Position numbers and translations under genes: made by a program. Positions 11,948-31,696 of a stretch of DNA of 31,752 nt are shown here, piece after piece. Origin of the DNA: Myxococcota bacterium (GTDB taxonomy: Bacteria > Myxococcota > Myxococcia > Myxococcales > Myxococcaceae); the NCBI GenBank assembly GCA_049322255.1, contig JBMORE010000035.1, positions 1 through 31,752 of the forward strand. The letters run 5' to 3'. Within the stretch, counting starts at the first letter, position 1. Each line of letters begins with the position of its first letter. The notes beneath the pieces were generated by a model. It had not been told where the DNA came from. It saw only the letters and a list, made by a program, of their open reading frames with translations, and ran no database searches.

Positions 11948-11950
11948 AGA

Positions 11951-13915: not shown

Positions 13916-13939
13916 ACGCAACTTCTACCACGCGTAGAC

Positions 13940-16900
13940 CTAGCCCCGAGACTGACGTCCGCGGCGACGCCATGCGACAAAACACAGCACCCACCAGGAC
14001 ACCCCCAAGAGGTGGACTCCCCCCTCACAGCCGCAACCTACTCGGTAGTGCGTCGGGTCGCCGGGGACAGTTTCCTCCGCGGGGAGCTGGGCGCACGCGC
14101 CTTTGACGCAGAGGGCCCCGGCGGCACACGCCGCCCCGCACTGGCCGCAGTGGTTGGAGTCGCTGCCCAAGTCCACGCACGCGTTGGCGCAGGTGGTCAT
14201 GCCCGCAGGGCACAAGACGCGAAAGTCGGTCTCGGCCTCGCTGTTGCCTCCAAAGGGCACCCAGCGGCCGAACCCCGTTCTGACCGGATAGATGACTCGC
14301 GCGCGCCAGTGCTTCGCACCTGGAGAGAGGTTCGCGATCAAGACGCGGGCAACCGCTCCGGCGGTGAACGCAAGGGATTGAACCGTCCCTCGCCCATCGA
14401 AAGGAACCCCGACGTTCTTCACCTCGACCTCGAGCCGAAGCATCCCGCCCAGAGGACTTTCCTGGCCGACTCGCCCCATGAGGGTCACGTCGGGGCCCGC
14501 GGAGGCTCCCAGACCGATGCGCGTGACTCCATCGTCGCGAAGCTGCGCGAGCCCTCGCGCCGCGCCTGGAGCGCCGTCCCCACCGAAAAAGACATACGCC
14601 CGGCCCTCGGCGTTGGAGGACCCGTCCCAGCCCGGCGCGCCCACCAGGAGGTCACCGAACCCATCTGCGTTGACGTCTCCCGCGCTCGCCACCGCCGCAC
14701 CGAAGTTTGCTCCCTGCTGATCGACCGGATCGAACCGAGCTCCGGCGAGAGGGCCAGCGCTGCCCGCATAGGCGTATATCGCCCCTTCCCCCGCCACCGA
14801 GCCGCTCCCCCGGGGCGCACCGATGGCGACGTCGGCGAAGCCGTCGCCGTTGAAGTCGACCCCGCCCGCCACGGCGGCACCGAACCCCGCATCGACCTCG
14901 GGCGCTGGATGGGGCAGCGACGTCGCCAGGGTGACTCCGGCGTCTCCTCCCCAATAGAGGTATGCCCCGCCTTCGTTGAGCTCGGTCCCATCGAACGCCC
15001 GCGCTCCGATGAGCAGGTCGCCGCGGCCATCACCGTTGACGTCACCCGCGGCGGCGACGGCTCTGCCGAATTCAGCCCCCGCTTGATCTGTCGGATCGAC
15101 GGGGGTCCCAACAAGCTCTAGCCCTCCGGCGTTCCCGAGGAAAATGTAAGCACGCCCTTCGTCCGGTTGGGCGCCGTCCCACCTGAACGCCCCGAGCAGC
15201 GCATCGGCCAGCCCGTCTCCGTTGACGTCTCCAGCGCCGGCGAGAGGAAACGAGAACCACGCACCGGCCTGATCGGTGGGGTCGAGCACCCAAGCGGGAG
15301 TCGTTGCCAGCCCAGTGGGGCCTCCCAGGAACAAGTACCCGCGCCCCTCCTCGAAGGCTTCTCCGCTCCACTCGTCCGCGGAGACCAAGACGTCGGCGAA
15401 ACCATCGCCATTCACGTCGCCCGCGCCGGCGACCGAATCGCCAAAGAAGGACCCTGCCTGATCCGTCGGATCGAGCACCCACGCCGGCATGAGCGAAAGC
15501 CCGGTGGCGGTCGGGCCGCCCCAATAGACGTAGGCTCGCCCTTCGTTCGCCGCCTGGTTGTCGGCCCGATAAGCGCCGATCACCACATCGCCATACCCGT
15601 CTCCATTCACGTCACCGGCGGCCGAGAGCGAATTTCCGAGCTCGGCAGAACTTTCGTCGGTCGGGTCTGCCGTCCACGCCGGGCTGGTGGCGAGCCCTGT
15701 GGCGCCACCCAGAAAAAGGTAGACGCGCCCCTCGTCGCTGGCTTGGCCGTTCCAGTCCTTCGCCCCGATGAGGACGTCGCCAAAGCCATCGCCGTTGACA
15801 TCGCCCGCGCTGGCCACTGCTGCGCCGAACGCCGCTCCTGCCTGATTGGTGGGGGCAACCGTCCAGAAATTCGTGGGGGTGAGGCCCTCGGCGAACCCCA
15901 AGTAGACATACGCTCTGCCTTCGTCTGGCTGGGACCCATTCCATTCACTGGCCCCGACGACGACGTCGCCAAACCCGTCTCCGTTGACGTCCCCCGCACC
16001 GGCGACCGACACCCCGAACCAGGCATCGACCTGGTCCGCGGGGTCGGCTGTCCAAGTCAAGGCGCTTCGCAACCCGCTGGCGCTCCCAAGGTAGAGGTGA
16101 GCGCGCCCTTCGCTGGCGAACACCGCGCTGTCCCACGAGGGAGCGCCCACGAGCACGTCGGAGTAGCCGTCACCGTTGACGTCGCCGACGCCTGCCACGG
16201 ACGAGCCGTACCGGGCGCTGAACTGGTCGGTCGGGTCGTCGAACCACACCGGGCTGTTCGAAAGCCCCGCTTGGCTCCCCAGGAAAAGATAGGCCCGGCC
16301 TTCATTGCCGAAGCTGCCCGGCCCGTCCCAGCCCGCAGCGCCCACCAAAACGTCCGCATAGCCGTCTGCGTTGACGTCGCCCGCGCCAGCCACCGAATAG
16401 CCAAAGAGCGCGAAGGCCTGGTCGGAGGAGTCAGCCGTCCACGCTGCCGCCAAGCTCAAGCCCGACATTCCGCCCTGGAACAAATAGACACGCCCTTCGT
16501 TGGTTCGGGCTGTGGCCAGGTCGTCCCACAAGTAGGCACCCACCACCACGTCTCCGAAGCCGTCACCGTTGATGTCGCCGGCGCCGCTCACCGACGCCCC
16601 AAACCACGCATCGGGCTGCGGGTCGGGAGCGGTCAGCTCTCGCGAAGGTGAGCTGGCGAGACCTCCCGGTCCGCCGAGGTAGACATAGACCTTGCCTTGA
16701 TTGGTCAACGCCCCCGGTCCACTCCAACCTGACGCCCCCACGACGACGTCGGCGTACTCGTCGCCGTTGAGGTCGCCGGCACCCGAGACGGAAAACCCGA
16801 AGAACGCGCCCTGGAGGTCGGTGGGGTCGGCCACCCAGCTCGGCGCGGCTTCCAACCCGGCCGCGCTGCCCAAAAACAAGTACGCCCGGCCTTCGTCAGC

Positions 16901-17278
16901 GGCTTCGCCATCGAACCCGTCGGAGCCGACCAGAACGTCGGCAAAGCCGTCACCGTTCACGTCTCCCACACCTGCGACCGCCCAGCCAAACCGGGAGCCC
17001 GTCTGGTCCGTCGGGTCTGCCGTCCACGCAGGAACGGTCGCCAACCCGGTGGCGCCTCCGAGAAAAAGGTACGCACGCCCTTCGTCGGTGCGCCCGGCAC
17101 CCGAATCGTCCCAAGAGGGAGCGCCGACCACCAGGTCAGCGTAGCCATCGCCGTTGACATCGCCCGCGCTGGCGGAGCTACCGAAGTTCGCGGTGCTCTG
17201 GTCGGTCGGGTCGGCCGTCCATGACTCAGTTGCCCTGAGCCCCGCAAGGCTGGGAGAGCCGCTCCAGGTCAGCGCCAA
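13940..17278 (-). CDS. Very large FG-GAP (integrin-alpha-like) repeat protein with a Cys-rich module and a MYXO-CTERM-type C-terminal sorting tail.
   Basis: About 15 tandem ~60-aa repeats (...FG.SVAGAGDVNGDGYADVLVGA...EGRAYLFLG...). The C-terminus GCGCEGGVHLLGVSWWVLCFVAWRRRGRQSRG has the GC-motif, a TM helix and an Arg cluster characteristic of MYXO-CTERM. The start is uncertain (see findings). Confidence 0.8.
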   Translation of the reverse strand: MALTWSGSPSLAGLRATESWTADPTDQSTANFGSSASAGDVNGDGYADLVVGAPSWDDSGAGRTDEGRAYLFLGGATGLATVPAWTADPTDQTGSRFGWAVAGVGDVNGDGFADVLVGSDGFDGEAADEGRAYLFLGSAAGLEAAPSWVADPTDLQGAFFGFSVSGAGDLNGDEYADVVVGASGWSGPGALTNQGKVYVYLGGPGGLASSPSRELTAPDPQPDAWFGASVSGAGDINGDGFGDVVVGAYLWDDLATARTNEGRVYLFQGGMSGLSLAAAWTADSSDQAFALFGYSVAGAGDVNADGYADVLVGAAGWDGPGSFGNEGRAYLFLGSQAGLSNSPVWFDDPTDQFSARYGSSVAGVGDVNGDGYSDVLVGAPSWDSAVFASEGRAHLYLGSASGLRSALTWTADPADQVDAWFGVSVAGAGDVNGDGFGDVVVGASEWNGSQPDEGRAYVYLGFAEGLTPTNFWTVAPTNQAGAAFGAAVASAGDVNGDGFGDVLIGAKDWNGQASDEGRVYLFLGGATGLATSPAWTADPTDESSAELGNSLSAAGDVNGDGYGDVVIGAYRADNQAANEGRAYVYWGGPTATGLSLMPAWVLDPTDQAGSFFGDSVAGAGDVNGDGFADVLVSADEWSGEAFEEGRGYLFLGGPTGLATTPAWVLDPTDQAGAWFSFPLAGAGDVNGDGLADALLGAFRWDGAQPDEGRAYIFLGNAGGLELVGTPVDPTDQAGAEFGRAVAAAGDVNGDGRGDLLIGARAFDGTELNEGGAYLYWGGDAGVTLATSLPHPAPEVDAGFGAAVAGGVDFNGDGFADVAIGAPRGSGSVAGEGAIYAYAGSAGPLAGARFDPVDQQGANFGAAVASAGDVNADGFGDLLVGAPGWDGSSNAEGRAYVFFGGDGAPGAARGLAQLRDDGVTRIGLGASAGPDVTLMGRVGQESPLGGMLRLEVEVKNVGVPFDGRGTVQSLAFTAGAVARVLIANLSPGAKHWRARVIYPVRTGFGRWVPFGGNSEAETDFRVLCPAGMTTCANACVDLGSDSNHCGQCGAACAAGALCVKGACAQLPAEETVPGDPTHYRVGCGCEGGVHLLGVSWWVLCFVAWRRRGRQSRG
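14300..17100 (-). repeat. Intragenic tandem repeats (~180 bp units) encoding the FG-GAP blades.
   Basis: A recurring GDVNGDG(Y/F)(A/G)DV motif about every 60 aa in the translated protein. Confidence 0.6.
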
Positions 17279-18171: not shown

Positions 18172-20091
18172 GTGTCAATGTTCCTGATGACGTCCTCCCT
18201 CCTTCGAACCGCTCTTTGCATCGCTCTGGTGCTGCCCGCCACCGCCGCCGCGCAGCCTGTTCTTTTGGAGCTCACCTTCGATGACGGCCCGGACGGCTCG
18301 GGCCCAGCGGAGGGACGCGCCGACCTCAACAACCTCGAGGGGAGATCGCCGCTGAGCGCGGTGCTGCGCGGGGCGGCGCACCGGAGCAGAATCGACGAGG
18401 GTCGCTACGGGCGAGCGGCTGTCTTCGGGGGTGGCGCGGACCACATCGAGCTGGTCAGCTCCGCTCCCCTCTCGGCGCCCTACTTGAACCTACTGATGTG
18501 GCTGCGGCCGGACGCGGCGGAAGGACATCTCTTGGGCCAGGCAGGCAGCTGGAGCATCGGTCTGTCCGCGGGGGAGCTGGTGTTCAACGTCGTCGGTGGG
18601 GACGCGGGGGTGACGATGATTCCTTTCGGGGTGTCTGTCCCGATGGATGGAGCGTTCCATCACCTCGAGGTGCAAATCGACCCTGCCGGCCAGCAAGCCT
18701 CGGCGCTGCTCGGCTTCAACCCTCAAGACCGACGCACGGTCGCCCTCGCGTCACTGCCTCCCCAGTCGACACAACCGCTTCGAATCGGCGTCGACTATCG
18801 CGGACGCATCGATGAGCTCCTCCTGTCGAGGCAGCCCGCCGCGCCGGCTGAAACCGCGTTCAATCGCGACCCGCAAGCGTGCGCCTCCGGGGTGGTCTGC
18901 CGCGAGGACGTCATCCAGCTCCTTCCGGTCCCCGTCGACGCCACCTCGGGGCGCTATACCTGGCCAGTCCCCGTGCGCCTCAAGACCGGATACGACCCGG
19001 CCCAGTGCACACCGTCCACCCCGTGCCCGCTCCTCGTCACCATCAGCGGCGGTTTTACCTGCGCCGACGACTACGACGGGCCGGGCGCTTTTGGCACCTT
19101 CGCACGCGCAGGAGCGGTGGTGGTCACCATCGACCCCTATTGCGAGGCAGATGGTTTTTACGCCCCCATCTGGGAGCCGGCGCAGTACATCGCCGTGAAG
19201 AACTGGGTGCTCGCGTCGAGCCCTTTGCGCGATCGAATCACTCCCGGTGACTACTTCGCGTCGGGCTGCAGTCACGGAGCCGGCACCACGCTCGCCTGGG
19301 CGCTCAAGGAAACAGACCACCCCGCGAGGACTTTCTCGCGGAGCCCGAGCGTGGAGGTTCACTGCGCCTACCACGGCGTCGAGATGTGCACTGAGTACAA
19401 GACCGCCATTGACCAAGTCATCGCTTCGTACCTTGGCCAGAGCACGGTCGCTCCTCATGACGACTCGAACCCGGCGGTTCAGACGTTTTGGGGGTTGAAC
19501 GCCATCGACTACCCGTCTCTGGTAAACACCCGCGAGGTGGCAATCTCCTGGGGTGCAGACCTCACGCCCAGCACTCCCATCTGCAGCGCCAACGGAACGG
19601 CGCAGTGCTTCGAAGAAGGCGCGGGAACTGCGCCGGGAGCGCGCGCCTTTCGTGACCGCTGGCGCTCGCTCGAAGACCCCAACCGACCGACCGGCTATTT
19701 CGTCGAAGACCACGAGAGCGACTGCCGTCATTGCGCATCCCCCAACGGGCAGGTCTTCGCTTGTGGCGCATGCTTTCTCCTCCGCGGCCGTGCGGGAATG
19801 CAGTCGGCCTGTCCAAGCTGCCTCCAGCTGAGCGAGGGCGCGGCGTCCACCTGCGTTGATCCGTTCGTCCAAGACGCGGGGACGGCAGATGCGGGGCACG
19901 ACGACGCAGGAATTGCCGACGCCGGCACTTCTGCCGCGGCAGATGCCGACGCAGGAGTGCCCGACGAGGACACCCCCCGGCCCGGTTGTGGTTGCCAAGC
20001 ATCGGGAGCCGCATCGGCGGGGACGCTGGCGTTCTTGCTCCTGACGCTCCTTGCGATGGCCGTCGCGTTGCGCACCCAAAATCGCCTCTGA
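18172..20091 (+). CDS. Secreted protein with a possible N-terminal lectin/LamG-like domain, a Cys-rich region and a MYXO-CTERM-type C-terminal sorting tail.
   Basis: Signal peptide MSMFLMTSSLLRTALCIALVLPATAAA|QP. The C-terminus PGCGCQASGAASAGTLAFLLLTLLAMAVALRTQNRL has GCGC, a TM helix and a basic end. The low-complexity D/A-rich linker before the tail is typical of such proteins. Confidence 0.7.
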   Translation: MSMFLMTSSLLRTALCIALVLPATAAAQPVLLELTFDDGPDGSGPAEGRADLNNLEGRSPLSAVLRGAAHRSRIDEGRYGRAAVFGGGADHIELVSSAPLSAPYLNLLMWLRPDAAEGHLLGQAGSWSIGLSAGELVFNVVGGDAGVTMIPFGVSVPMDGAFHHLEVQIDPAGQQASALLGFNPQDRRTVALASLPPQSTQPLRIGVDYRGRIDELLLSRQPAAPAETAFNRDPQACASGVVCREDVIQLLPVPVDATSGRYTWPVPVRLKTGYDPAQCTPSTPCPLLVTISGGFTCADDYDGPGAFGTFARAGAVVVTIDPYCEADGFYAPIWEPAQYIAVKNWVLASSPLRDRITPGDYFASGCSHGAGTTLAWALKETDHPARTFSRSPSVEVHCAYHGVEMCTEYKTAIDQVIASYLGQSTVAPHDDSNPAVQTFWGLNAIDYPSLVNTREVAISWGADLTPSTPICSANGTAQCFEEGAGTAPGARAFRDRWRSLEDPNRPTGYFVEDHESDCRHCASPNGQVFACGACFLLRGRAGMQSACPSCLQLSEGAASTCVDPFVQDAGTADAGHDDAGIADAGTSAAADADAGVPDEDTPRPGCGCQASGAASAGTLAFLLLTLLAMAVALRTQNRL

Positions 20092-20603: not shown

Positions 20604-23600
20604 TCAATCTGCGCGGAAGAGCTCTTCCACGTCCGCCTCCGAGAGCGTCTTGCCCAGGTCGCTGTCTGCACCGAGCACGCCCTTGGCCAGCTCGCGCTTG
20701 CGCTGCTGCAGAGCGAGAATCTTCTCTTCCACCGTGCCCTTGGTGATGAGCTTGTAGCTGATCACCGCCTTGGTCTGTCCGATGCGGTGGGTGCGGTCGG
20801 TGGCCTGGTCCTCCACCGCCGGGTTCCACCAGGGGTCGTAGTGAATGACGTAGTCCGCCGCGGTGAGGTTCAAGCCGGTGCCTCCGGCTTTCAGGCTGAT
20901 GAAGAACACCGGCGGGCCCGAGGGGTCGTTGAACGCGTCGACCCGCGCCATGCGGTCTTTGGTGCGGCCGTCCAGATAGAGGTAGCCGACCTTCGCCTCG
21001 TCCGCCTGCGTCTTGAGCAGCTCGAGCATCTCGGTGAACTGGCTGAACACCAGGGCGCGGTGCCCTTCGCCCACCAGCTCGTTCACCAGCGCGCCGAAGC
21101 GCTCCAGCTTCGCCGACGGCGGCAAGAGCGTGCCCGGGGGCAACTTGAGCAGCCGGGGGTCGCAGCACACCTGGCGCAGCCGCATCAGCGCGGCGAGGAT
21201 GGACACCCGCGACCGCCCGAAGCCCACTTTGTCGATCGACTCGTAGACCTTGCGGCGGCTCTCCTCCAGCACCTCGCGGTAGAGCGCCGCCTGGCCGCCG
21301 TCCATCTCGCACCAGGCCACCGTCTCGGTCTTGGGAGGCAGGTCTTTTGCCACCTCGGTCTTGAGCCGCCGCAAGACGAACGGGTGAATGCGCCTTCGCA
21401 GCCGCTCGCGCACCGCCAGGTCGCCCACCACCTGAATGGGCTGCTCGTAGCGATCGTGGAAGGTGTCTGCCCCGCCCAAGAAGCCGGGCATCAAGAAGTC
21501 GAAGATGCTCCACAGCTCGGAGAGCCGGTTTTCCAGCGGGGTGCCGGTGAGCGCCAGCCGCTGCTCGCACGGTATCGCCTTGCACGCCTGCGCGGTGGCC
21601 GAGTCGGCGTTCTTGATGTTCTGCGCCTCGTCGAGCACCACGTAGCGAAAACCCACCTGGGAGAGCTCCTGCACGTCGCGCCGCACCAACGCGTAGGAGG
21701 TGAGCACCAGGTCGGCGTCCTTGAGCTGGTCGCTGCGCTCGCGCCGGCCTTGCCCGTGCCACACCACCGCGCGCAGCTTTGGGGTGAAGCGCTCGACCTC
21801 GCGTTCCCAGTTGACCAGCACCGAGGTGGGCGCCACCACCAGCGACGCTTTCTGCCCCTCCTCGTTCTTCACTTTCTGCAAAAGCGCCAGCGCCTGCACC
21901 GTCTTCCCCAGCCCCATGTCGTCGGCGAGGATGCCGGAGAGCCCGTGGCGGTGAAGGAACCACAGCCAGGCCAGCCCGGCCTCCTGGTAGTGGCGCAAGG
22001 TGGCAGTCAAGTGAGCCGGCGGCTTCACCGAAGGAATGCCGTCAATCTCCCGTAAGGCAGCGATGGCCTTTCTCGCCTTGGCCTCGATCTCCGCCTCTCC
22101 CAAGGAGGCGAGCAAATCGAGCGCGGGCGCCTGGTAGAGCGGCAGCCGGGTGTGCTTCACCCCGGCGAGCGCCCCCGCCTCCTCGAGCAGATCGGCCGCG
22201 CGGCGGATTTCGTCCACGTCGGCCTCGGCGAAGCTGCCGTCCTCGAGCGGCACGTAGCGGCGCCCCGAGTCGAGCCACATGCGCACCGCCCCCAAGTCGA
22301 CCGATTGGTCATCGGAGACGAAGTCGGCGTCGAGCGAAAACCAATTCACCCCGCTCATTCCCACCCGGATACGCGGCTTCATTCTCGGTCGAACGCGCAC
22401 GGTGGGGCTCTTGACGCCGAAGAGCTCCCACTCGGGCGGCAGCTCCTTTCGGCCCTTCGTCCAAAAGTCGATCGCCGCGTCGCCGACGACCTCGTATACC
22501 TGCCCGGTGGCATCGTGGCGGAACCCCAGCTCCAAGAGCCGTTTGGCGGCCGCGCGCTCCAGCTCTTGCTGCCGGCGGTAGAGCTTCTTGCCTCCCTCGC
22601 CTGCTCCCGTGGCGTACCCCAGCGGACCTGTGCCTGGAGACACCGGCACCGTCGAGTGACCGTAGCGCGCAGCGAGCACCGCCTTGATGCGTTCGGCTCC
22701 ACCTTCCAGCGTCAGCAAAAAACACGGGGCCACGTCCTCCTCGACGTCGAGCCCGTCGGCCTTCAAGGACATCTGAAAGCGCGGCAGGTGCGCGGCGAAG
22801 AAGGTGAGCACCCGGTCGACCTGCGAGGCGGGAAAGGACATCGAAGGCTCGAGCACCCATTTGCGCGCCAGCCGGGGAGGCAGCTCCGGCTCGACCCGGA
22901 ACAGCGTCTGTCCGTGAATGACCCAGGTGCGGCGGCCCGCCAAGAGCAACGCGTCTTTGAGCCCCACCGAAAGGCCTTCGGGCAAGAGCAGGTCGATGTG
23001 GGCCTGGGCGCCGTCGGGTCGGGACTGGAGGTGGACCTGCGGCCGCGCCGGCTCTGTGGAGAATCGAAGCGGAGTGCCACGGTAAACGACACGCCGGTGC
23101 CGGAGCAGCTCGACCAGCTCGGCCAAATCGTCGTCGGAGAGCACGATGCGCCCATCGAACCGGCTTTCGTAGCGGGCGAGCTCGAGAAACAGCCGCTCGT
23201 CGGCCAGCGCGATGCGCGCGCCCGAAGAGAGGAGCCGCTTGACGTGCACCGGCCCCTTGGCCTGCGCATCGGAGCGACGCACGTCCAGCACCCAGTGACG
23301 CGCGCCTCCCCCGGGGCGCACCGCGGTGAGGCGGTAGAAGAACTCGAGGTCGGGCAAGGACGACAACCCCAGCCAGCTCTCCAGCTTGGCCAGCGCGGGC
23401 AACGCCACCGCCTCGGAGGCTGGGCCACCTCCGTCCGCCTGCCGCACCCGGGCGAGATAAACCAGGGCGGTCGCCACCACGTGCTTGCAGTGGGGGCCGT
23501 ACTTGTTCCAGGCCTCGCACGTGCACCGCGACCGCACGGTTCCGTCCCCGGGCGGCGCCAGCTCGACCTCGTAGCGCTCGCCCGTCGAGCCGGTCACCTG

Positions 23601-23810
23601 AGCGGTGACCCTGCCGGCGTCTTTCGACACCAGCGCCACCCGCCGCCCTTCGGCGTAGTCTCGCCCCTTCTTGAAGGTGACGGGAGCCACCTCGGCCTTG
23701 AGGGCACGAAACCACTGGCCTTGGTCGACGGGCGTCGTTTCTGTCGAAGAAGTAGCCACAGATGAGGAAAACGCCCCGCGGCGGCGGGGGAATCCGCACC
23801 CATAGCACAA
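20604..23810 (-). CDS. SNF2-family helicase with an N-terminal SWIM zinc finger (RapA/YwqA-like).
   Basis: SWIM motif CTCEAWNKYGPHCKHV. SNF2_N motifs ILADDMGLGKT and DEAQNIKN. Helicase_C motifs (..GGTGLNLTAADYVIHYDPWWNP..). The ATG at 23810 has a GAGG 8 nt upstream, and only 3 nt separate it from the upstream gene's stop. Confidence 0.85.
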   Translation of the reverse strand: MCYGCGFPRRRGAFSSSVATSSTETTPVDQGQWFRALKAEVAPVTFKKGRDYAEGRRVALVSKDAGRVTAQVTGSTGERYEVELAPPGDGTVRSRCTCEAWNKYGPHCKHVVATALVYLARVRQADGGGPASEAVALPALAKLESWLGLSSLPDLEFFYRLTAVRPGGGARHWVLDVRRSDAQAKGPVHVKRLLSSGARIALADERLFLELARYESRFDGRIVLSDDDLAELVELLRHRRVVYRGTPLRFSTEPARPQVHLQSRPDGAQAHIDLLLPEGLSVGLKDALLLAGRRTWVIHGQTLFRVEPELPPRLARKWVLEPSMSFPASQVDRVLTFFAAHLPRFQMSLKADGLDVEEDVAPCFLLTLEGGAERIKAVLAARYGHSTVPVSPGTGPLGYATGAGEGGKKLYRRQQELERAAAKRLLELGFRHDATGQVYEVVGDAAIDFWTKGRKELPPEWELFGVKSPTVRVRPRMKPRIRVGMSGVNWFSLDADFVSDDQSVDLGAVRMWLDSGRRYVPLEDGSFAEADVDEIRRAADLLEEAGALAGVKHTRLPLYQAPALDLLASLGEAEIEAKARKAIAALREIDGIPSVKPPAHLTATLRHYQEAGLAWLWFLHRHGLSGILADDMGLGKTVQALALLQKVKNEEGQKASLVVAPTSVLVNWEREVERFTPKLRAVVWHGQGRRERSDQLKDADLVLTSYALVRRDVQELSQVGFRYVVLDEAQNIKNADSATAQACKAIPCEQRLALTGTPLENRLSELWSIFDFLMPGFLGGADTFHDRYEQPIQVVGDLAVRERLRRRIHPFVLRRLKTEVAKDLPPKTETVAWCEMDGGQAALYREVLEESRRKVYESIDKVGFGRSRVSILAALMRLRQVCCDPRLLKLPPGTLLPPSAKLERFGALVNELVGEGHRALVFSQFTEMLELLKTQADEAKVGYLYLDGRTKDRMARVDAFNDPSGPPVFFISLKAGGTGLNLTAADYVIHYDPWWNPAVEDQATDRTHRIGQTKAVISYKLITKGTVEEKILALQQRKRELAKGVLGADSDLGKTLSEADVEELFRAD

Positions 23811-23813: not shown

Positions 23814-24803
23814 TCATCCCAGCGCGCGTTCGAAGGCGCGGCGCAGGAAAACCGGCAGCACCCGCCGGCGCCAGGCCGGGTCGACGTTGATGTTGGTCAG
23901 CGGGTGGCACTGCTTGTAGGCAAGTTGCCCCAGCTCGGCGATGACGGCGTCACCGAGCACCCGCCCACGAAATGCTTCGAGGCGCTTGAAAAGGTGAGGT
24001 CGCGCTCCCAGCGCCGAAACCGCCACCCGCACCCATTCGATGACCCCGCTCTCGTCGAGCTGGGCCGCCACCGCCACGCACAGCGCGGGGTAGTCGATGG
24101 CCGCCCGAATGCGCAGCTTCTCGTAGCCCATCACCACCCTCGCCGCGGGCAGCGGCACGCGCGCCTCCACCACCAGCTCGTCCGGCCGCATCGCGAGATT
24201 CACGATGCCGTCGGGAACGTAAAGCTCGGAAACGGGCACCTCCCGCACGCCATTGGCCCCCGCCAGCCGCACCGTGGCGCCGAGGGTCATCAGCACCGGC
24301 GCGGTGTCATTGGAGGCGGCGGCGACGCACTTTTGCCCGCCCTTCACCACGTGACAGACGGTGCCGTCCTTCTTGAGGCAGAAACCCAGCGCTTTGCGCC
24401 AGAAGTAGGTCTGGTTGTAGTAGACGCACCGGGTGTCGAGGCAGAGATTGCCACCCAGGGTGCCCATCTCGCGCAGCTGGGGCCCGGCGATGGCTTTCGC
24501 CGCACGTGCCAGGCTGGGGAGCTTGGCCCGCACCGTCTCGTTCCGGCCTAGGTCGGCGATGGTGAGCATCGCTCCCAGCCGTAAGGCGCCTCCCTCTTCT
24601 TTCACATAGGAAAGATCGCGAATGCCTTTCAGCCCCACCACGTGCGGAGGGGTGAAGAGCCGATGCTTCATGTTGGGGACGAGGTCGGTGCCGCCGGCGA
24701 GGACCTTCACCTGCCCTTGGTGCTGGACGAGCAAGCGCACGGCCTCGTCCACCGAGGTGGGAGCGTGGTACTGGAACGGCGGCAGGGTGAGCATCGGCGG
24801 CAA
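23814..24803 (-). CDS. FAD-binding subunit of a molybdenum hydroxylase of the xanthine dehydrogenase/CO dehydrogenase family (CoxM/XdhB-like).
   Basis: FAD-binding pattern ...VLAGGTDLVPNMK...GTLGGNLC.... The CO-dehydrogenase-flavoprotein C-terminal region is present. Length 329 aa. Confidence 0.8.
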   Translation of the reverse strand: MPPMLTLPPFQYHAPTSVDEAVRLLVQHQGQVKVLAGGTDLVPNMKHRLFTPPHVVGLKGIRDLSYVKEEGGALRLGAMLTIADLGRNETVRAKLPSLARAAKAIAGPQLREMGTLGGNLCLDTRCVYYNQTYFWRKALGFCLKKDGTVCHVVKGGQKCVAAASNDTAPVLMTLGATVRLAGANGVREVPVSELYVPDGIVNLAMRPDELVVEARVPLPAARVVMGYEKLRIRAAIDYPALCVAVAAQLDESGVIEWVRVAVSALGARPHLFKRLEAFRGRVLGDAVIAELGQLAYKQCHPLTNINVDPAWRRRVLPVFLRRAFERALG

Positions 24804-24914
24804 GCACTATCGACCCCGCCGCCGCGGGTCAACGGCAGCGCTCGCCAGGCCAGGGTAGTTCCAAGATTTGGCAAAACGGTCCGCACCAGCGGCCGACCGT
24901 ACGAGGCCTCGACT

Positions 24915-25541
24915 GTGTCCCGCTTCTCGGCGTTTCTCGAGCGACAGAACAAGGTGGCGATCGCCAGCGCCGCCACCCTCGTGCACGGGCTGCTCTACCT
25001 CTTGCCCAACCACCTGCGCCTGGTGTCCGCCTCCGAGCTCCCCCTCACCACGCTCGATCGCTGGATTCCGTTCGTGCCCCAGACGGCGTGGATCTACTGG
25101 AGCGACTACTTCCTCATCTTCGTCGCCTTCAGCCTTTGCCGCTCGCCCGGCTCCACCGCCCGCTTCGTGTACGCGCTGTTCACCGTCATCGCCATCGGCA
25201 CCGGGGTGCACTGGCTGTGGCCCGTCGAGTTTCCGCGTCACCTCTACCCGCTCCCCCTCACGGTGGATGCGCTCACCGCGCCAGCGCTGTCCCTCTTCCG
25301 CCAGCTGGATTCGCCGGGAAGCTGCGTGCCCAGCCTTCACGTCGCGGCGTCGTTCATCGCCGCCTTCGCCGCCAGGAGCGAGAACGCCCGCGCGGGTCTG
25401 GCGCTCACGGCGTGGGCCGCGCTCATCGCCCTCTCCACCCTCACCCTCAAGCAGCACTACGTCATCGACGTGGTGACCGGGGTGGCGCTGGCGGCGGTGG
25501 TGCGCTGGGGGTTCTACCGCCCGCGTCAGGGCACTCGGTAG
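24915..25541 (+). CDS. PAP2-superfamily (acid phosphatase / lipid phosphatase-like) integral membrane protein.
   Basis: GTG at 24915 with a GAGG 7 nt upstream. PAP2 signature pieces PSLH and KQHYVIDVVTG. About 6 hydrophobic helices. The ORF-track extension back to 24642 is noise. Confidence 0.6.
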   Translation: MSRFSAFLERQNKVAIASAATLVHGLLYLLPNHLRLVSASELPLTTLDRWIPFVPQTAWIYWSDYFLIFVAFSLCRSPGSTARFVYALFTVIAIGTGVHWLWPVEFPRHLYPLPLTVDALTAPALSLFRQLDSPGSCVPSLHVAASFIAAFAARSENARAGLALTAWAALIALSTLTLKQHYVIDVVTGVALAAVVRWGFYRPRQGTR

Positions 25542-27421
25542 GTCAGGTCGACCTGCGGGCGCGTGGGCGGACTGGGGTTCCCCTCGATGGGATCGAAGCG
25601 CGCCCAACGATCGACGCTCGGAGGCGTGGTGCCTTCGGCCCCCATCCTGAGCCGCATGCCCACCCGCCCTTTCCCCTGAGCCACCGCCGAGCTGAGCCAG
25701 GCGGAGACGTCGGCGGAGCGCTCACCGGCAGCATCGCTGCTGCTGACCAGCACTGCTGAACAAGTCGAGCAGAAGGTCGCGGCGTTGTAGTCGGTGGCGT
25801 CGAGGATTCCGTAGTCGACCCCCTCAACGTACACGTTGCCGTAGGCCGCGTGGGTGCCGGAGTTGCAGTTGTCCAGGTAGATCCGCAACGTCGCAGTCAG
25901 CGAGGTCGCCATCAACGCGTTGGCGGGAAGATCGACGGCGAAGAAGCCACGCAGCGGCAGGGCTGTGGGGAGGGTGCCCTTGATCCAACCCACCGACGTC
26001 CAGCTGTTCGTCTGAAACAAGCCGTCCCCACGCACGTAGCCGTCCTCTGAGAAGGGAATGACGACGCTGTACAGCCCCCGCACCTTGAACTGGTAGGTGG
26101 CGGTCGCCGCGAGGGTGTTGCCCGCCAGGTCGCGCGCCGCCGTCGACACTTGCCACTGCACCACTTGGTTGTTCGGCCACGCCGTGGGAGTGAAGGTGAG
26201 CACGGTGCCCGGGGTGTCCCAGGAGAAGGAGCCCGCGTTACCCGGCGCACCGGGCGACGTCACTTGCAGCGCCGCCTGAGTAGCGGCCTTGTCCATCGGC
26301 TCGGAGAACGTCACGGTGATGGCCTGGTTCGGCTCGCGGTTGTTGGTGCTGTTGGCAGGCGTCACCGAGATGATGGTCGGAGAAGCGGTGTCTTTGGTGG
26401 TGAAGGACCAGCTGAAGGGCTGCGCCAGCGCGTTACCCGAGACGTCCTCCGCTCCCGTGCCGACCGACAGCGTATAGGTCGTGCTCCCGGCGAACGGTGT
26501 GGCGTGCTGGCAGGAGAGGGTCGAGCCGCTGCCGTCGAAGGCCAGGGTGCAGCCACCGCTCACCGGGGGAGTGATGGTGAACGCCGCGCGGGTCTTCAGC
26601 GGCTCCATTCCCTCGGAGAAAGAAATCGACGGCGCCAAGGCTGGGTCGACGTCCTGCGCTCCATTCAACGGAATGGTCGCCACCACCGTGGGGGCAGTGG
26701 TGTCGGGAGTGCTGGCGGTGGTGAAGGTGACGCTCGTCTGCCCCGCAAGGCCGTTCCCTGCGAGGTCGGCGCCGGCGATGGTGAGCACGTAGGTGGTGAG
26801 GGGCTGAAACGGCGAGGGCGGCGCGCTGAACGATACGGTCGTCTTTTCGGTCGACCAGGAGGGCGCGCCGAAATCGAAGGTGGGTGCCGCGCTGACCGAG
26901 ACCGTGGCGGTGTCCATCGGCTCGGAGAAGGTGATCGACAGCCGGGCTCCGATGGGAATCATCGTCGCCGCATTGGCGGGCGTGGTGGCGGAAATGACCG
27001 GCGGCACCACGTCGACCACCGCCTCGGTGGTGAAGCGCACCTCCACCGTGTCCATCTCCACACCCTGTGCCGAGCGTCCGCTGATGGTCAACACGTACTG
27101 CCGGCTGTTCTCCAGCGGATCGGCCAGCGCCAGGGCAAGCTGGGTGTCCTCCTCCGACCAAGCCGCGGTCGCTCGCGGCACCTGCGGGTTGAAGGTCAGC
27201 TGCACCGAGGCGGTTTCCATCGGCAGGGAGAAGACGACCTCCACGGCCGTTCGGGTGGAGACGTTCACCGCCCCCGGCACGGGCACGGTCGAGACCACCG
27301 TGGGAGGCGCCAGCGCTCCAGCACAACCGCGGCGCTCGAGGCACTCCTGCTTCGCTCGATCGAAGTCCAGACAGGCGCTGGCACAGACGACGGCGGCGAG
27401 CCCCAATCCAAAATGACGCAT
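25526..27421 (-). CDS. Lipoprotein with about four bacterial Ig-like (SbsA/Big_5-type) domains and a ~200-aa C-terminal domain of unknown function.
   Basis: ATG at 27421 overlaps the upstream gene's stop (TGATG). Lipobox MRHFGLGLAAVVCASAC. A repeated ~90-aa unit (...TVVATIPLNGAQDV...FSEPMD...A....V) recurs four times. Confidence 0.65.
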   Translation of the reverse strand: MRHFGLGLAAVVCASACLDFDRAKQECLERRGCAGALAPPTVVSTVPVPGAVNVSTRTAVEVVFSLPMETASVQLTFNPQVPRATAAWSEEDTQLALALADPLENSRQYVLTISGRSAQGVEMDTVEVRFTTEAVVDVVPPVISATTPANAATMIPIGARLSITFSEPMDTATVSVSAAPTFDFGAPSWSTEKTTVSFSAPPSPFQPLTTYVLTIAGADLAGNGLAGQTSVTFTTASTPDTTAPTVVATIPLNGAQDVDPALAPSISFSEGMEPLKTRAAFTITPPVSGGCTLAFDGSGSTLSCQHATPFAGSTTYTLSVGTGAEDVSGNALAQPFSWSFTTKDTASPTIISVTPANSTNNREPNQAITVTFSEPMDKAATQAALQVTSPGAPGNAGSFSWDTPGTVLTFTPTAWPNNQVVQWQVSTAARDLAGNTLAATATYQFKVRGLYSVVIPFSEDGYVRGDGLFQTNSWTSVGWIKGTLPTALPLRGFFAVDLPANALMATSLTATLRIYLDNCNSGTHAAYGNVYVEGVDYGILDATDYNAATFCSTCSAVLVSSSDAAGERSADVSAWLSSAVAQGKGRVGMRLRMGAEGTTPPSVDRWARFDPIEGNPSPPTRPQVDLTYRVP

Positions 27422-28248
27422 CACCAAACCCCCACGAAGCCGAGGCCCGCACCGGCTGGAGACCACGCGACGCCCGAGGTCACCTCTTCATCTCCCCCGA
27501 ACCACCACAGGGCCCCGGCGGCCAAAAGGCAGGCGGCGCCCACCCCTACCCCGGCCCAACCCACCGTCTGCTGCGTCTTACCCGAAGCCACCAACTGCTC
27601 GCTCTGGGCCGGAGTCAACGCGCGGTCGGGCGTCGCCGACGTCAGCTTGCCGTAGCTGCCTTGGGCCATCGAAAGCCCGGCGCCCCCGGTGACCAGACCC
27701 GCCATGCCCACACCGAAGGGCACCCAGCTCAGCCGCTTGGTGGTGCCCCAGCGGGTGGTGACGCGGGCGGTGTCGGGAATCAACGCTCGCCCGAGCTTTT
27801 GCGAAAGTTGGGCGGCGAGCTGGACCGCCACGTCACGAAAGCTGCGCACGAGGCCGTCTTCGCTGGGGCTGGTGGCGCTCGCGGCGGCCAGCGGCTTGCC
27901 GGTACCCGCCTCGAGCACCCGCACCTCCAGCCGGTAGCTTTCGCTGGTCTTGGCGACCTGGCCCACCATCAACCCCTGCACGCCAAGGTCTCCGGTCACC
28001 TGGGCGCGGCAGACCTCGTCGGGACAGCCCAAAAGCTGCTGCTGACGCTCGAAGCCCAAAAGCGCGGCGAGGTCTTCGCTGGTGACCACCCGCACCCCCT
28101 GGTAGTTCAGCTGCTGGGCGAGGGTGCCGGTGTAGAAGCCGGTCAGCTTGGGCTCGAGGTTCACCATCGAGAGCCCGGGGGCCGCGATCCGAATGGGCTC
28201 GGCGGCGGCAAGCAGCGCGGCCACACAGCCAACAGCAATCGAGATCAT
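27421..28248 (-). CDS. Secreted or periplasmic protein with a C-terminal TM anchor; function unknown. Its N-terminal domain shows loose resemblance to the CsgG/LpoB/TolB-N-type alpha/beta fold.
   Basis: Signal peptide MISIAVGCVAALLAAA|EP. Hydrophobic helix TVGWAGVGVGAACLLAAGALWWF near the C-terminus. No catalytic motifs. Confidence 0.5.
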   Translation of the reverse strand: MISIAVGCVAALLAAAEPIRIAAPGLSMVNLEPKLTGFYTGTLAQQLNYQGVRVVTSEDLAALLGFERQQQLLGCPDEVCRAQVTGDLGVQGLMVGQVAKTSESYRLEVRVLEAGTGKPLAAASATSPSEDGLVRSFRDVAVQLAAQLSQKLGRALIPDTARVTTRWGTTKRLSWVPFGVGMAGLVTGGAGLSMAQGSYGKLTSATPDRALTPAQSEQLVASGKTQQTVGWAGVGVGAACLLAAGALWWFGGDEEVTSGVAWSPAGAGLGFVGVW

Positions 28249-28255
28249 GGCGAGC

Positions 28256-28858
28256 TCAGAGCACCTCGAACACGATTTTCTGCGTTCCGGTCTTGGCTGA
28301 GTCGAAGAAGCCGCGGACTGTTATTGAGCCTCGCTCTGCTCGCGTGAGTGCCGAGGAGAGCCGATAATAGATCTTCTCCATCGACGTGCCCTTCGTGGCG
28401 TCGAGCTTCACGTGTCGTTTGCCATAGGAGAAGTCGATGGTGCCGTCCTTCTCGGCTGCCTTGCCCTTGAAGGTCACCGTGAGATCGCGCGAGATGTGGT
28501 CACCAAAGTCAGCGTCTTTGCGGAGCTTGGGTGGGGACAGTGCCACGCTCACGCCAGGAATGGTACGACGCACCGACAGCTTCGCGGTCGCCAGCTCAAG
28601 CGAGGATTGAATCCACCGCTTGGGCTGAGCTTTGACGGTCATGCCGTCCTCCGCATCGTACGGATTCGGAATGAACTCGTCCTCGTTCTTGAACTTGCTT
28701 CCGGGCAATGCGGCGAGCTTCTTGAGCGCCCTGATTTCCTTAGGGGAGTACTTGGTGTCCTTCTCGATGACCTCGAGAATCTCACGGGCGTCGTCGGGGC
28801 GAATCCTCCCACCGGCGATCTTGGACGCGACCAACTTATTCAAAGGACTGACGGGCAT
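28256..28858 (-). CDS. Hypothetical cytoplasmic Lys-rich protein (200 aa) in a compositionally atypical (~57% GC) gene.
   Basis: ATG at 28858 with a strong GAGGAGGGA ribosome-binding site. No signal peptide or TM helix. Contains AT-rich codons (AAA, AAT, ATT, TATTAT) that are rare in the rest of the window. Overlaps the last 7 codons of coxL. Confidence 0.55.
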   Translation of the reverse strand: MPVSPLNKLVASKIAGGRIRPDDAREILEVIEKDTKYSPKEIRALKKLAALPGSKFKNEDEFIPNPYDAEDGMTVKAQPKRWIQSSLELATAKLSVRRTIPGVSVALSPPKLRKDADFGDHISRDLTVTFKGKAAEKDGTIDFSYGKRHVKLDATKGTSMEKIYYRLSSALTRAERGSITVRGFFDSAKTGTQKIVFEVL

Positions 28859-31175
28859 GCGGGCCTCCCTCCTCGAGCCGGCGCACCATACCAGAGCGCT
28901 CCTGCGCGCGAAGCAGTTCGAGCACCTTGGCCGGGTGGAAAGGCAGCTCGGTGAGCCGCACCCCGACGGCGTCATAGATGGCATTGGCGATGGCGGGGAT
29001 GACCGGGTGCAGCGGGCCCTCGCCGGCCTCCTTTGCGCCGTGGGGACCATGGGGGTCCACCGACTCGACGATGAAGGCCTCGATGTCCGGGGTGTCGAGC
29101 GAGGTGGGAATGCGGTAGTCGAGCAGCGAGGGCCCCTGGTGCAAGCCGCTGGGGTGGTAGGTCATCTCCTCCATCGCCGCCTCGGCCCAGCCCATATACA
29201 CCGAGCCTTCGATCTGCCCCTCGACCAAGGTGGGGTTGAGCGCGCGGCCGCAGTCGTGCGCCGCCCACACCTTCTCCACCCGCCACATGCCGGTCTGGCG
29301 ATCGACCTCCACCTCCACCACGTGGGCGGTGAAGCTGTAGGCGGGAGAGGCGCCGATGGTGCCGCCACGGTAGTCGGCTCCCAGCTTCTGCGTGCGGTAG
29401 GAGCCGGTGGCGCCCAGGGTGCCGAACTTCGCCTCCGCCAGCTGCACCGCTTCACGGAAGGAGAGCTTTTGCCCCTCGGGGCCGAAGAGCGTTCCCAAGC
29501 GCCCGTCGACCGCGGAGGGCCCCACGCCCCACTTCTCGGCGACCGCGGCCGACAACTGCGCCCACAGCTTCTGCCCCGCCTCCACGCACGCCAGCCCGAC
29601 CATGAAGGTGCCGCGGCTGGAGTAGGCCCCGAGGTCCACCGGGGTCAAGTCGGTGTCGGAGACCACCACGTGGCAGTCGCGCGGATCGCACCCGAGCTCC
29701 TCGGCGATGAGAAACGCCGGCAGCGAGTTGGTGCCCTGGCCGATGTCCGAAGCGCCGGAGAAGATGGTCACCTTCCCGCTGCGGTCGAGCTTCACCTGAA
29801 TGCCCGACTGGGGCATCTCGTTGGGGTAGATGGGGTAGGCGGTACCGGAGATGTACATCGAACCGGCGACGCCCAACCCCCGGCCCGGCGGCAGCTTGCC
29901 CTTGCGCGTTTTCCACCCGCTCGCTTCCTCCACCTTCTCCAGCGCCTTCAAAAACCCGTTGGAGGTGATGGTCTGCCCGTTGATGGTTTTCACCTGTTCG
30001 CCGATGAAGTTCCGCTTGCGCACTTCGATGGGGTCGAGGCCGAGCTTCTCCGCCGCCACGTCCAGCGCGACCTCGAAGGCAAAGCGCGGTTGCACGCTGC
30101 CGTGGCCACGCTTGGGGCCGCAGGGGGGCTTGTTGGTGAACACCCGGGTGGCATCGAAGCGGTAGCTGCCGAAGCGGTAGGGGCCGGTGAGCAGCTGCCC
30201 CGAGTAGTACGCGGTGACCAGCCCGAAGGAGGAGTACGCCCCGCCGTCGATGAGAATCTTCGAGTCCACCGCGTCGATCTGCCCGTCCTTCGACAGCCCG
30301 ACCCGGAAGCGCATCTTCATCGGGTGGCGGCCGCGGTGGGCGTAGAACACCTCCTCGCGGGTGTAGAGGCACTTCACCGGTCGGCCGGTCTTCATCGCCA
30401 GCTTGGCGACGATGAACTCCAGCGCGAAGGGGTCGGACTTGCCGCCGAAGGCGCCACCGAGGAAGGGCTGAATGACGCGAATGCGCGCCGGGTCGAGCCC
30501 GAGCACCCTGGAGAGCTCGCGGTGTACGTAGTGGGGAATCTGAGTCGAGCTCCATACGGTGAGGTTTCCCTCGGCGTCGTACTGGGCCAGCGCGCAGTGC
30601 GGCTCGATGGGGGTATGTGTCGAGCCGGCATAGAAAAAAGTCTCGTCGGCCACCGCGGCGGCGCCACCGAGCGCCTGATCCACCGGGCCGAACTCGAGCC
30701 GCACGTGCTTGGAGACATTGCCCTGCTTGGCGTCCTCGTGGATTTTCACCTGGTCCTCGGCCAACGTCGCTTCCGGCTCGACCAGCGCCGGGAGCACCTC
30801 CCACTCGACGTCGATGAGCTCGAGGGCCTCCTCGGCAGCGAGCTCGTCGACGGCGGCGACCGCGGCCACCTCGTCACCGATGAAGCGGGCCTTCTCCGTC
30901 GCCAGCGCCTGCTCGTCGGGCGTCCAGGGAATAACTCCGTAGCGCGCAGGCAGCTCCTTGCCCTCGAGCACCGCCACCACCCCGGGGTGCGACAGGCAGC
31001 GTGAAAAGTCGATGCGCCGGATGTACGCGTGGGCATGGGGGCTGCGGAGAATTTTGCAGTGCAGCATCCGCGGCAGCGCAAGGTCGTCGGTGTACTGCGC
31101 CTGCCCGGTGGCCTTCTTGAGCCCGTCGAGCTTGCGCAGCCGCCGGCCGAGAACCGCGTAGGCCTTTTCGCTCAC
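28836..31175 (-). CDS. Molybdopterin-binding large subunit of a xanthine dehydrogenase / CO dehydrogenase family enzyme (CoxL/XdhA-like; not the form-I CO dehydrogenase signature).
   Basis: The N-terminus VSEKAYAVLGRRLRKLDGLKKATGQAQYTDD is typical of the family. GGAFGGK motif. The GTG start overlaps the coxS stop (GTGA). No VAYRCSFR motif. Ends in TAA. Confidence 0.85.
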   Translation of the reverse strand: MSEKAYAVLGRRLRKLDGLKKATGQAQYTDDLALPRMLHCKILRSPHAHAYIRRIDFSRCLSHPGVVAVLEGKELPARYGVIPWTPDEQALATEKARFIGDEVAAVAAVDELAAEEALELIDVEWEVLPALVEPEATLAEDQVKIHEDAKQGNVSKHVRLEFGPVDQALGGAAAVADETFFYAGSTHTPIEPHCALAQYDAEGNLTVWSSTQIPHYVHRELSRVLGLDPARIRVIQPFLGGAFGGKSDPFALEFIVAKLAMKTGRPVKCLYTREEVFYAHRGRHPMKMRFRVGLSKDGQIDAVDSKILIDGGAYSSFGLVTAYYSGQLLTGPYRFGSYRFDATRVFTNKPPCGPKRGHGSVQPRFAFEVALDVAAEKLGLDPIEVRKRNFIGEQVKTINGQTITSNGFLKALEKVEEASGWKTRKGKLPPGRGLGVAGSMYISGTAYPIYPNEMPQSGIQVKLDRSGKVTIFSGASDIGQGTNSLPAFLIAEELGCDPRDCHVVVSDTDLTPVDLGAYSSRGTFMVGLACVEAGQKLWAQLSAAVAEKWGVGPSAVDGRLGTLFGPEGQKLSFREAVQLAEAKFGTLGATGSYRTQKLGADYRGGTIGASPAYSFTAHVVEVEVDRQTGMWRVEKVWAAHDCGRALNPTLVEGQIEGSVYMGWAEAAMEEMTYHPSGLHQGPSLLDYRIPTSLDTPDIEAFIVESVDPHGPHGAKEAGEGPLHPVIPAIANAIYDAVGVRLTELPFHPAKVLELLRAQERSGMVRRLEEGGPHARQSFE

Positions 31176-31696
31176 GAAGCGCGCTCCGTGGTGGGCCGCT
31201 CGTCGCGCTCTTCCACCGTGCGCTGGCCCGAGGCGACCTCTACCGCGTCGAGAATCTGCTTGTAGCCGGTGCAACGGCACAGGTTGCCCGAGAGCGCTTC
31301 TTGGATTTCCTCGCGCGCCGGCTTGGGGTTTTTCTCCAAGAGCGCCGCCGCCGAGAGCATCATCCCCGGCTGGCAAAAGCCGCACTGGAGCGCGCCGCAG
31401 ACATCGAAGGCGTCTTGCACTGGGTGCACCTTCGCCCCCTGGGCCAGACCCTCGATGGTGGTGATGCGCCGGCCCACATGCTCCACCGCCAGGCACAAGC
31501 AGGAAAGCACCGGTCGCCCGTCGATCAGCACCGTGCAGGCGCCGCAGTCGCCCTTGTCGCAGCCCTGCTTGGAGCCGGTGAGGCCCAAGGTGTAGCGCAA
31601 GGTCTCAAGCAGGGTGGCGCGCGGCTCGACCGCCACCTGGTGGCGATCGCCGTTCACCTCCAAGGAGATGAGCACCTTGTCCGGGCGGCCGAGCAC
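31172..31696 (-). CDS. [2Fe-2S]-binding small subunit of the molybdenum hydroxylase (CoxS/XdhC-like).
   Basis: Plant-type ferredoxin cysteines CDKGDCGAC...C, and the second cluster motif CGFCQPG...CRCTGY. GTG start at 31696. Confidence 0.85.
   Translation of the reverse strand: MLGRPDKVLISLEVNGDRHQVAVEPRATLLETLRYTLGLTGSKQGCDKGDCGACTVLIDGRPVLSCLCLAVEHVGRRITTIEGLAQGAKVHPVQDAFDVCGALQCGFCQPGMMLSAAALLEKNPKPAREEIQEALSGNLCRCTGYKQILDAVEVASGQRTVEERDERPTTERAS

Follow-up and report, generated by a model that had tools for sequence, protein, structure and literature searches.

How did a low-GC, Lys-rich gene come to overlap the end of a molybdenum hydroxylase gene in a member of the Myxococcaceae? The gene lies on the minus strand at positions 28256 to 28858 of a 31,752-nucleotide (nt) stretch of DNA from a Myxococcota bacterium (GenBank assembly GCA_049322255.1, contig JBMORE010000035.1, positions 1 to 31,752), which we refer to as the window. 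It overlaps the 3' end of the gene encoding the large subunit (L) of an XDH-family enzyme. A preliminary description made from the sequence alone had named this upstream gene coxL and suggested that a comparatively recent horizontal insertion of the Lys-rich gene may have remodelled the C terminus of its product. We compared the locus with its orthologues, analyzed guanine-plus-cytosine (GC) content and codon usage, and searched for homologues of the Lys-rich protein. The explanation that we favor, and consider probable, is that the gene is a genuine member of a rare family. It would be the gene nearest to L in a block of four genes, about 4.0 kb long, that was inserted at the junction between the L and medium-subunit (M) genes of the operon.

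The L-M junction and its probable insert

The three subunits of the enzyme are encoded on the minus strand. The small [2Fe-2S] subunit S (31172 to 31696; Pfam Fer2_2 and Fer2) adjoins L (28836 to 31175; the molybdopterin-binding subunit, with Ald_Xan_dh_C, MoCoBD_1, and MoCoBD_2), both here and in all orthologous loci. The FAD-binding subunit M (23814 to 24794; FAD_binding_5 and CO_deh_flav_C) is about 4 kb from L. The domains of S, L, and M all scored above the Pfam cut-offs, as expected of the XDH-family three-subunit S-L-M type. The gap between L and M is 4041 nt long (24795 to 28835) and holds the block of four genes.

We used L to scan one genome per species, which gave 80 orthologous loci, and ran the window proteins against them by tblastn. 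The 14 closest loci come from Myxococcaceae, Archangiaceae, and Myxococcales metagenome-assembled genomes (MAGs), and their L proteins are 80 to 84% identical to that of the window. All have the order S-L-M, and M begins 3 to 92 nt past L, a spacing that most loci of more distant origin share. L and M are also adjacent in Planctomycetota and many Gemmatimonadota loci, and in all they adjoin in more than 40 distant loci. The M protein of the window is 62 to 73% identical to the products of the M genes directly after L in its relatives. Synteny extends beyond M to an SNF2 helicase gene (20604 to 23810, minus strand; Pfam), which follows M in 8 of the 14 closest loci and in L012, where S is off the contig (tblastn, 58 to 67% identity). 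Loci with SNF2 downstream of M include L008, L009, L012, L016 to L019, and L023.

In none of the 80 orthologous loci was there a tblastn match to the Lys-rich protein or to two of the other block proteins, the DUF2380-like and Big_5 proteins described below. A longer version of the fourth open reading frame, that of a PAP2 phosphatase, did give matches at orthologous loci, but these were antisense shadows of M and not PAP2 genes. The most parsimonious reading of these comparisons is that a contiguous S-L-M order is ancestral, in which case the block would be a derived insertion in this lineage. Synteny thus supports the insertion that had been proposed: the Lys-rich gene is missing from this position in all 14 close relatives, and from every other orthologous locus examined, while L and M are otherwise contiguous. 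However, the inserted unit is not a single gene but about 4.0 kb with four genes. Nor is the insertion evidently recent, because L is only 80 to 84% identical in the nearest genomes, and no homologue of the Lys-rich protein exceeds 51% identity.

Other lineages have inserts of their own between L and M. In a Myxococcales MAG, 3.3 kb at this position (L021:11203-14509) contain an acyltransferase gene and a gene of unknown product on the opposite strand. About 20 Gemmatimonadota/Longimicrobiales loci have an L-M gap of 1.0 to 1.2 kb, and the only one examined (L058:12467-13483) holds a gene for an AmiA-like amidase. Gaps of 4.9 kb (L069) and 8.5 kb (L046) also occur. The junction seems to tolerate insertion, with unrelated inserts in different lineages.

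The other three genes of the block appear to encode envelope proteins. The first begins 7 nt past the stop codon of the Lys-rich gene and encodes a putative exported or membrane protein (27421 to 28248, minus strand) resembling DUF2380; its match to Pfam DUF3280/DUF2380 is under the cut-off (E = 3e-4). Next comes a gene for a predicted Ig-like surface protein with four Big_5 domains and a CopC-like domain by Pfam (25526 to 27421, minus strand; P0021). We used its 631-amino-acid (aa) NCBI start, with which it overlaps the stop of the DUF2380-like gene by 1 nt. The third encodes a PAP2-family membrane phosphatase (24915 to 25541, plus strand, start codon inferred; PAP2_3, E = 2.8e-13). It is on the opposite strand, convergent with the Big_5 gene and divergent from M, and 0.93 of its third codon positions are G or C (GC3). 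Codon usage is host-typical in all three, with z from 0.2 (the DUF2380-like gene) to +3.0. We used homologues of the Big_5 and DUF2380-like proteins to look for a place where the block might be native. The best other homologue of the former is 40% identical and the nearest relatives of the latter are 39% identical, and no homologue of either occurs together with the Lys-rich gene.

A scan for promoters and terminators around the block gave nothing above chance. M and the PAP2 gene diverge from a 120-nt spacer (24795 to 24914), where a new promoter for M would have to lie. Its minus strand has TTGACC-N15-GATAGT just upstream of M, an element that the consensus scan did not call.

Base composition and codon usage

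The preliminary description had cited composition in its argument for horizontal insertion. The GC content of the Lys-rich gene is 58.2%, compared with 67.8% for the upstream gene, 69.4% for the downstream gene, and 67.3% for the contig. The 600-nt interval from 28201 to 28800 is the GC minimum of the contig (0.593; the next lowest is 0.622). Therefore, the dip that had been described is real, but the gene has 58% GC and not about 57%, and its two neighbors are 9.6 and 11.2 points higher rather than about 13. The Lys-rich composition was also described correctly. Lys accounts for 23 of the 200 residues (11.5%; 11.6% of codons) versus 2.9% in the pooled other genes of the window, and Ile for 6.5% of codons versus 2.7%. 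Ala, Gly, Leu, and Val are scarcer than in the other window genes.

We calculated an expected GC content by fixing the amino acids of the Lys-rich protein and applying the pooled synonymous codon usage of the other 19 genes in the window. The expected value was 61.1% and the observed value 58.5%, compared with about 67.5% for the other genes. GC3 was 0.769 versus 0.840 expected (z = -2.8; log-likelihood z = -3.1). Amino-acid composition thus explains about 70% of the GC deficit, and a lower GC3 about 30%. Individual codons say little more. AAA, which had been listed as atypical, is used for 17% of the Lys residues in this gene (4 of 23) and equally often elsewhere (46 of 263). AAT (2 of 3), TAT (3 of 5), and ATT (5 of 12) are enriched, and for AAT and TAT this agrees with what had been reported, but the counts are tiny (two to five codons each; Fisher P = 0.05 to 0.15).

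A lowered GC is found across the family to which the protein belongs (see below). In eight of the nine other family loci, the gene is 2 to 5 GC points under its surroundings. Where neighbors were measured, its GC3 is equal to or higher than theirs, with the exceptions of L094 and the nearly neutral L090. This shows that the lowering of GC across the family loci is a purely compositional family effect. The argument from composition for a horizontal insertion is weak, because about 70% of the deficit reflects an amino-acid composition that is family-wide. The GC3 deficit is no proof of foreign origin either, although it is compatible with incomplete amelioration. Its value of 0.77 matches that of the nearest homologues, P0002 and P0004, whose genes are nearly identical to the window gene in composition (57 to 58% GC, GC3 of 0.77) and lie in contigs of about 60% GC.

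A second family member has a similar profile. The gene for P0009 (L094:6001-6615; GCA_040960215.1, JBFOMQ010000128.1) has 54.3% GC against 65.7% in its surroundings, a difference of -11.4 points, and a GC3 of 0.70 against 0.78 to 0.85 in eight neighbors. Such a profile hints at movement of the family from genome to genome. Among ten members, this gene and the one in the window are the only ones with GC3 well under that of their neighbors.

Could the gene be native and vertically inherited, with its low GC simply the signature of a Lys-rich protein and its absence elsewhere due to loss in the relatives? The composition data are in keeping with this. Most of the GC deficit is accounted for by amino acids, family genes are under the GC of their surroundings everywhere, codon usage is native in the other three genes of the block, and three more genes in the window share a low GC3. 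However, L and M are contiguous in 14 of 14 close relatives and in outgroup phyla, so that many independent and precise deletions would be required. In addition, a relative with a family copy of its own has it at a different locus, and the copy belongs to a different clade. Finally, the GC3 of 0.77 is low, whereas family genes in most other genomes equal or exceed their neighbors. We consider vertical inheritance with repeated loss unlikely, and an insertion of the block remains our preferred explanation.

The protein family and its contexts

When the Lys-rich protein was compared exhaustively by phmmer with 1.84 billion cluster representatives, 13 of these were recovered, the best full-length one at 46% identity. 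A subsequent profile search added a homologue with 51% identity and a set of proteins of 217 to 222 aa. A word-indexed protein search with the single sequence recovered only the protein itself. We found no family matches by tblastn against plasmids and phages or in a pattern scan of IMG/VR. An alignment and neighbor-joining tree separated two clades. The 200-aa clade contains the window protein, P0015/P0003, P0002, and P0004, which are 39 to 49% identical to it. The 219-aa clade contains P0012, P0016, P0017, P0019, and P0020, which are 71 to 83% identical to P0019 and 24 to 28% identical to the window protein. The two are colinear over their full length and share the motifs LP.S.F, VPG..V.L, and DGT..F.YG....V.VK.G. 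The 200-aa clade is distinguished by an extra beta-hairpin insert at residues ~59 to 77, and the 219-aa clade by a C-terminal extension that the former lacks.

Four columns of the family alignment are invariant (G139, F143, G146, and G157), and L45, V96, P101, V105, G119, L126, and Y145 are nearly so. The alignment has no conserved polar or catalytic-type residue. Most members are Lys-rich (8.6 to 13% in the ten family loci examined), and almost all, including the window protein, have no Cys. The isoelectric point (pI) of the window protein is 9.7, and 14 of 16 members fall between 8.6 and 9.7. No signal peptide was predicted in any member and no transmembrane helix in the window protein, which agrees with the preliminary description, as does the absence of a known motif.

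Profile searches did not name the family. None of the 16 members had a credible match in Pfam, NCBIfam, PADLOC, or PHROGs, and no domain in these libraries explains the Lys-richness. The best Pfam match of the window protein was Big_3 (E = 0.049, 14 bits). Scattered matches among the 16 members to a tail sheath protein (phrog_165), a connector (phrog_17327), Cas4/Csa1, PDC-S48, and PRK00647 were discarded as noise, being mutually inconsistent and at or below about 20 bits. The two PHROG matches that we inspected covered 44 to 56 residues at about 19 bits and were to different families in different members. Homology searches found relatives, at up to 51% identity, but no named family.

AlphaFold2 with the 16-sequence alignment gave a confident model (pLDDT 90, pTM 0.80; a single-sequence run reached pLDDT 50), in which a mixed alpha+beta domain comes after three helices at the N terminus. 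Foldseek with this model returned nothing below E = 0.2 in the PDB or below E = 0.05 in BFVD, and PDB sequences searched with a profile gave no match below E = 0.7. Like Lys-rich nucleoid-associated or histone-like proteins, the protein is small, basic, and Lys-rich. Unlike them, it has a mixed alpha+beta model without a PDB neighbor, no profile match, and lysines that are evenly spread rather than confined to tails or repeats. On the evidence of homology, it is a member of a rare, unnamed family, so far found only in Myxococcota-type genomes and metagenomes.

We examined the genomic contexts of nine other family members. The 219-aa clade has a conserved, unrelated neighborhood in three long contigs of 69 to 72% GC. 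One of its members, P0019, is in the same genome (GCA_044223505.1) as an intact S-L-M locus (L016), and its neighborhood is partly common to L001 and L004. The window gene thus belongs to a different clade from the copy that this relative, with its intact operon, has elsewhere in its genome. This speaks for a foreign origin of the window gene, as do its absence from this locus in the relatives and its likeness in composition to the genes for P0002 and P0004. None of the nine contexts contains an XDH-family gene, which suggests that the Lys-rich gene is functionally unlinked to the molybdenum enzyme. There was also no recurrent partner gene across the nine, only a loose association with peptidases.

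That association raises the possibility of a partnership with envelope proteins or secreted peptidases, in which the Lys-rich protein might serve as an inhibitor or chaperone or have an immunity-like function. In four of the nine contexts, genes for secreted-type serine peptidases adjoin the family member or are close to it. An S37/S28 peptidase gene is directly upstream in L001 (5502-7931), trypsin-like peptidases are nearby in L002 (3111-4853) and L004 (1635-6843), and an S9 peptidase is directly downstream in L091 (6804-9341). In the window, two genes for exported proteins follow the Lys-rich gene. However, the peptidase families differ between contexts, and adjacency by chance is likely because these Myxococcota genomes are rich in peptidases. 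The Lys-rich protein has no signal peptide, the block contains no peptidase, and no partner is conserved across contexts. A role of this kind therefore appears improbable.

That the protein helps the molybdenum hydroxylase to mature, assists it in some other accessory way, or forms an additional subunit of it is slightly less likely still. It would explain a coupling to L, since the gene overlaps L by 23 nt, has a strong ribosome-binding site in the tail of L, and lies inside the S-L...M cluster. Like the XdhC/CoxF/CoxI accessory genes, it directly follows a large-subunit gene and is apparently co-expressed with it. Unlike them, it has no sequence similarity or profile match to XdhC/CoxI or to any Pfam or NCBIfam family, it is absent from orthologous operons, and none of its homologues is beside an XDH-family gene.

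With low confidence, we propose that the product is soluble and noncatalytic, a mildly basic alpha+beta protein that acts in binding or as an adaptor and does not belong to the molybdenum enzyme. This proposal reflects the lack of a signal peptide, transmembrane helix, and Cys, the basic pI, and the restriction of invariant positions to Gly, Phe, Pro, and hydrophobic residues. A broader idea, which is possible but doubtful, is that this is an undescribed family restricted to Myxococcota, whose fold matches no solved structure (PDB, BFVD) and which moves between genomes of different GC and possibly has an envelope or peptidase role or binds anionic ligands. Movement between genomes is suggested by the 2 of 10 members (that of the window and that of L094) that are strong GC3 outliers in their hosts.

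The overlap with L and the origin of the arrangement

The open reading frame of the Lys-rich gene has its ATG at 28856 to 28858 and its TGA stop at 28256 to 28258, and encodes 200 residues, as had been described. In NCBI, the product is annotated as a hypothetical protein of a MAG (locus tag ACOZIN_04910). The longest open reading frame in this frame begins further upstream, at 29050. However, all homologues have the N-terminal sequence MP(V/I)S.L.KLV and the same start Met in the alignment, so that 28858 is the true start and the longer frame was ruled out. The homologues are colinear and share this start Met, the AlphaFold2 model is confident, and the GC content of the three codon positions has a coding-type pattern (GC3 0.766 > GC1 0.547 > GC2 0.433). 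Therefore, this is a genuine protein-coding gene.

The Shine-Dalgarno sequence, GAGGAGGGAGG (28864 to 28874, minus strand), is 5 nt before the ATG. It lies within the five L codons (L-E-E-G-G) that precede the last seven of L. Among 20 gene starts examined in the window, only this one has a perfect AGGAGG, as the claim of the strongest ribosome-binding site implied. The overlap itself covers 23 nt (28836 to 28858), in which the last seven codons of L and its TAA are the first eight codons of the Lys-rich gene in another frame. L reads ...CAT GCC CGT CAG TCC TTT GAA TAA, and the Lys-rich gene reads ATG CCC GTC AGT CCT TTG AAT AAG. The TAA of L (28836 to 28838) spans the AAT and AAG codons for N7 and K8, and K8 is part of the conserved N-terminal motif of the family. 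L is the only one of 20 genes in the window to end in TAA. Both the overlap and the rarity of this stop codon had been described accurately.

The name coxL does not hold for the upstream gene. L scored 301.7 bits with TIGR02416 and 360.7 bits with NF040766, far under the cut-offs of these CODH large-subunit models (991.15 and 950, respectively). Its best NCBIfam model is TIGR03194, the alpha subunit of 4-hydroxybenzoyl-CoA reductase, which it matches end to end at 854.8 bits. The operon also resembles HcrCAB 4-hydroxybenzoyl-CoA reductase in having the order 2Fe-2S, molybdenum cofactor, and FAD subunit, but at 855 bits L does not reach the equivalog cut-off of TIGR03194 (994.55). We regard L as an XDH-family subunit that is closest to 4-hydroxybenzoyl-CoA reductase alpha.

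To what extent was L remodelled? We compared the L 3' ends of 18 orthologues (L008 to L025). Past a conserved ...LPFHP.K.L..L(R/K), their tails are 4 to 38 residues long and show no conservation, two of the 18 also end in TAA, and in several the stop of L abuts or overlaps the start of M. The NCBIfam profile stops 24 residues short of the C terminus of the window L. The last seven codons and the stop of L do come from the Lys-rich gene, as the suggestion of a remodelled C terminus would have it, but they touch only a nonconserved tail that was already variable among orthologues. The tail of L has been remodelled, but within a segment free to vary, and no functional consequence is implied.

An assembly chimera could also place foreign DNA in a contig like this one, which comes from a MAG and changes abruptly in GC content at about 28.86 kb. 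This is very unlikely. The gene order conserved in relatives carries on across the block, with S-L at one end and M-SNF2 at the other, and a chimera would have to enter and exit at exactly one intergenic junction. Furthermore, the frame of L, the ribosome-binding site, and the start of the Lys-rich gene form an evolved-looking overlap, and codon usage in three of the four genes of the block is that of the contig itself. That the open reading frame is spurious or noncoding, for which there is nothing but the missing annotation, can be dismissed in view of its full-length homologues at 41 to 51% identity, conserved start, confident model, and coding GC pattern.

We propose the following sequence of events for the insertion of the block. 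It would have entered the junction between L and M of the S-L-M operon in this lineage. The insertion would have replaced the original stop codon of L, leaving L to run seven codons into the Lys-rich gene and to end at the TAA formed by its Asn and Lys codons, with the strong Shine-Dalgarno sequence inside the nonconserved tail of L. Given the spacing, translation of the Lys-rich gene is probably coupled to that of L, and the two genes for exported proteins after it probably share its transcript. M probably needs its own promoter, judging from its position behind the oppositely oriented PAP2 gene. The Lys-rich gene itself may have been acquired from a different, probably lower-GC, lineage of Myxococcota, or may be an old paralogue that was relocated. 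It would have arrived within or next to a block whose other genes look native.

The block has much in common with genomic islets and accessory insertions in conserved operons. It is found in a single lineage, at an intergenic junction, its composition is partly atypical, and its cargo consists of fast-evolving envelope proteins. However, several points weigh against its insertion as an island. We found no convincing direct or inverted repeats flanking it, no integrase, transposase, or other mobility domain among its genes, and no tRNA beside it; the only tRNA found is 17 kb away. These are the mobility signatures of a genomic island. The other three block genes are compositionally native, and the GC3 deficit of the Lys-rich gene is equalled or exceeded by three window genes outside the block. 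These encode an S8 subtilase (12056 to 13921; GC3 of 0.79, z = -4.4), an FG-GAP protein (13940 to 17278; GC3 of 0.775, z = -7.0), and an unknown product (18172 to 20091; GC3 of 0.777, z = -5.1). Instead of a single import of foreign DNA, the block may represent a relocation within the genome or the combined result of several events. The contig belongs to a MAG, we infer coupling and co-transcription from spacing only, and the functional proposal is drawn from absent features.

Two other regions of the window deserve mention. A tRNA-Leu(CAG) gene (11864 to 11947) is followed by the S8 subtilase gene and then by the FG-GAP repeat gene, whose product has 1112 aa. The region from 11864 to 17278 includes the second-lowest GC of the contig and may be another accessory region beside a tRNA. 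Two minus-strand open reading frames, 3803 to 4930 and 4483 to 6099, have a GC1 that equals or exceeds GC3 (0.83/0.72 and 0.73/0.71, respectively), unlike real genes here. The true gene calls between 3803 and 6099 probably differ, for example 5412 to 6023 or plus-strand open reading frames.

The locus carries a methodological lesson. In a high-GC genome, a 9-point dip in GC looked foreign, yet about 70% of it is a family-wide composition rich in Lys and poor in Ala and Gly. The evidence that actually supports insertion is comparative synteny and not composition. Nothing at the locus points to a new kind of system, and the Lys-rich protein is a new member of an unnamed family of hypothetical proteins. 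This very small family, with a confidently predicted fold that has no PDB or BFVD match, is a reasonable target for structural genomics. For the organism, the comparisons suggest that a conserved three-subunit molybdenum hydroxylase operon has been split by about 4 kb of lineage-specific genes for envelope proteins, and that the tail and stop codon of its large subunit are now supplied by an inserted gene.

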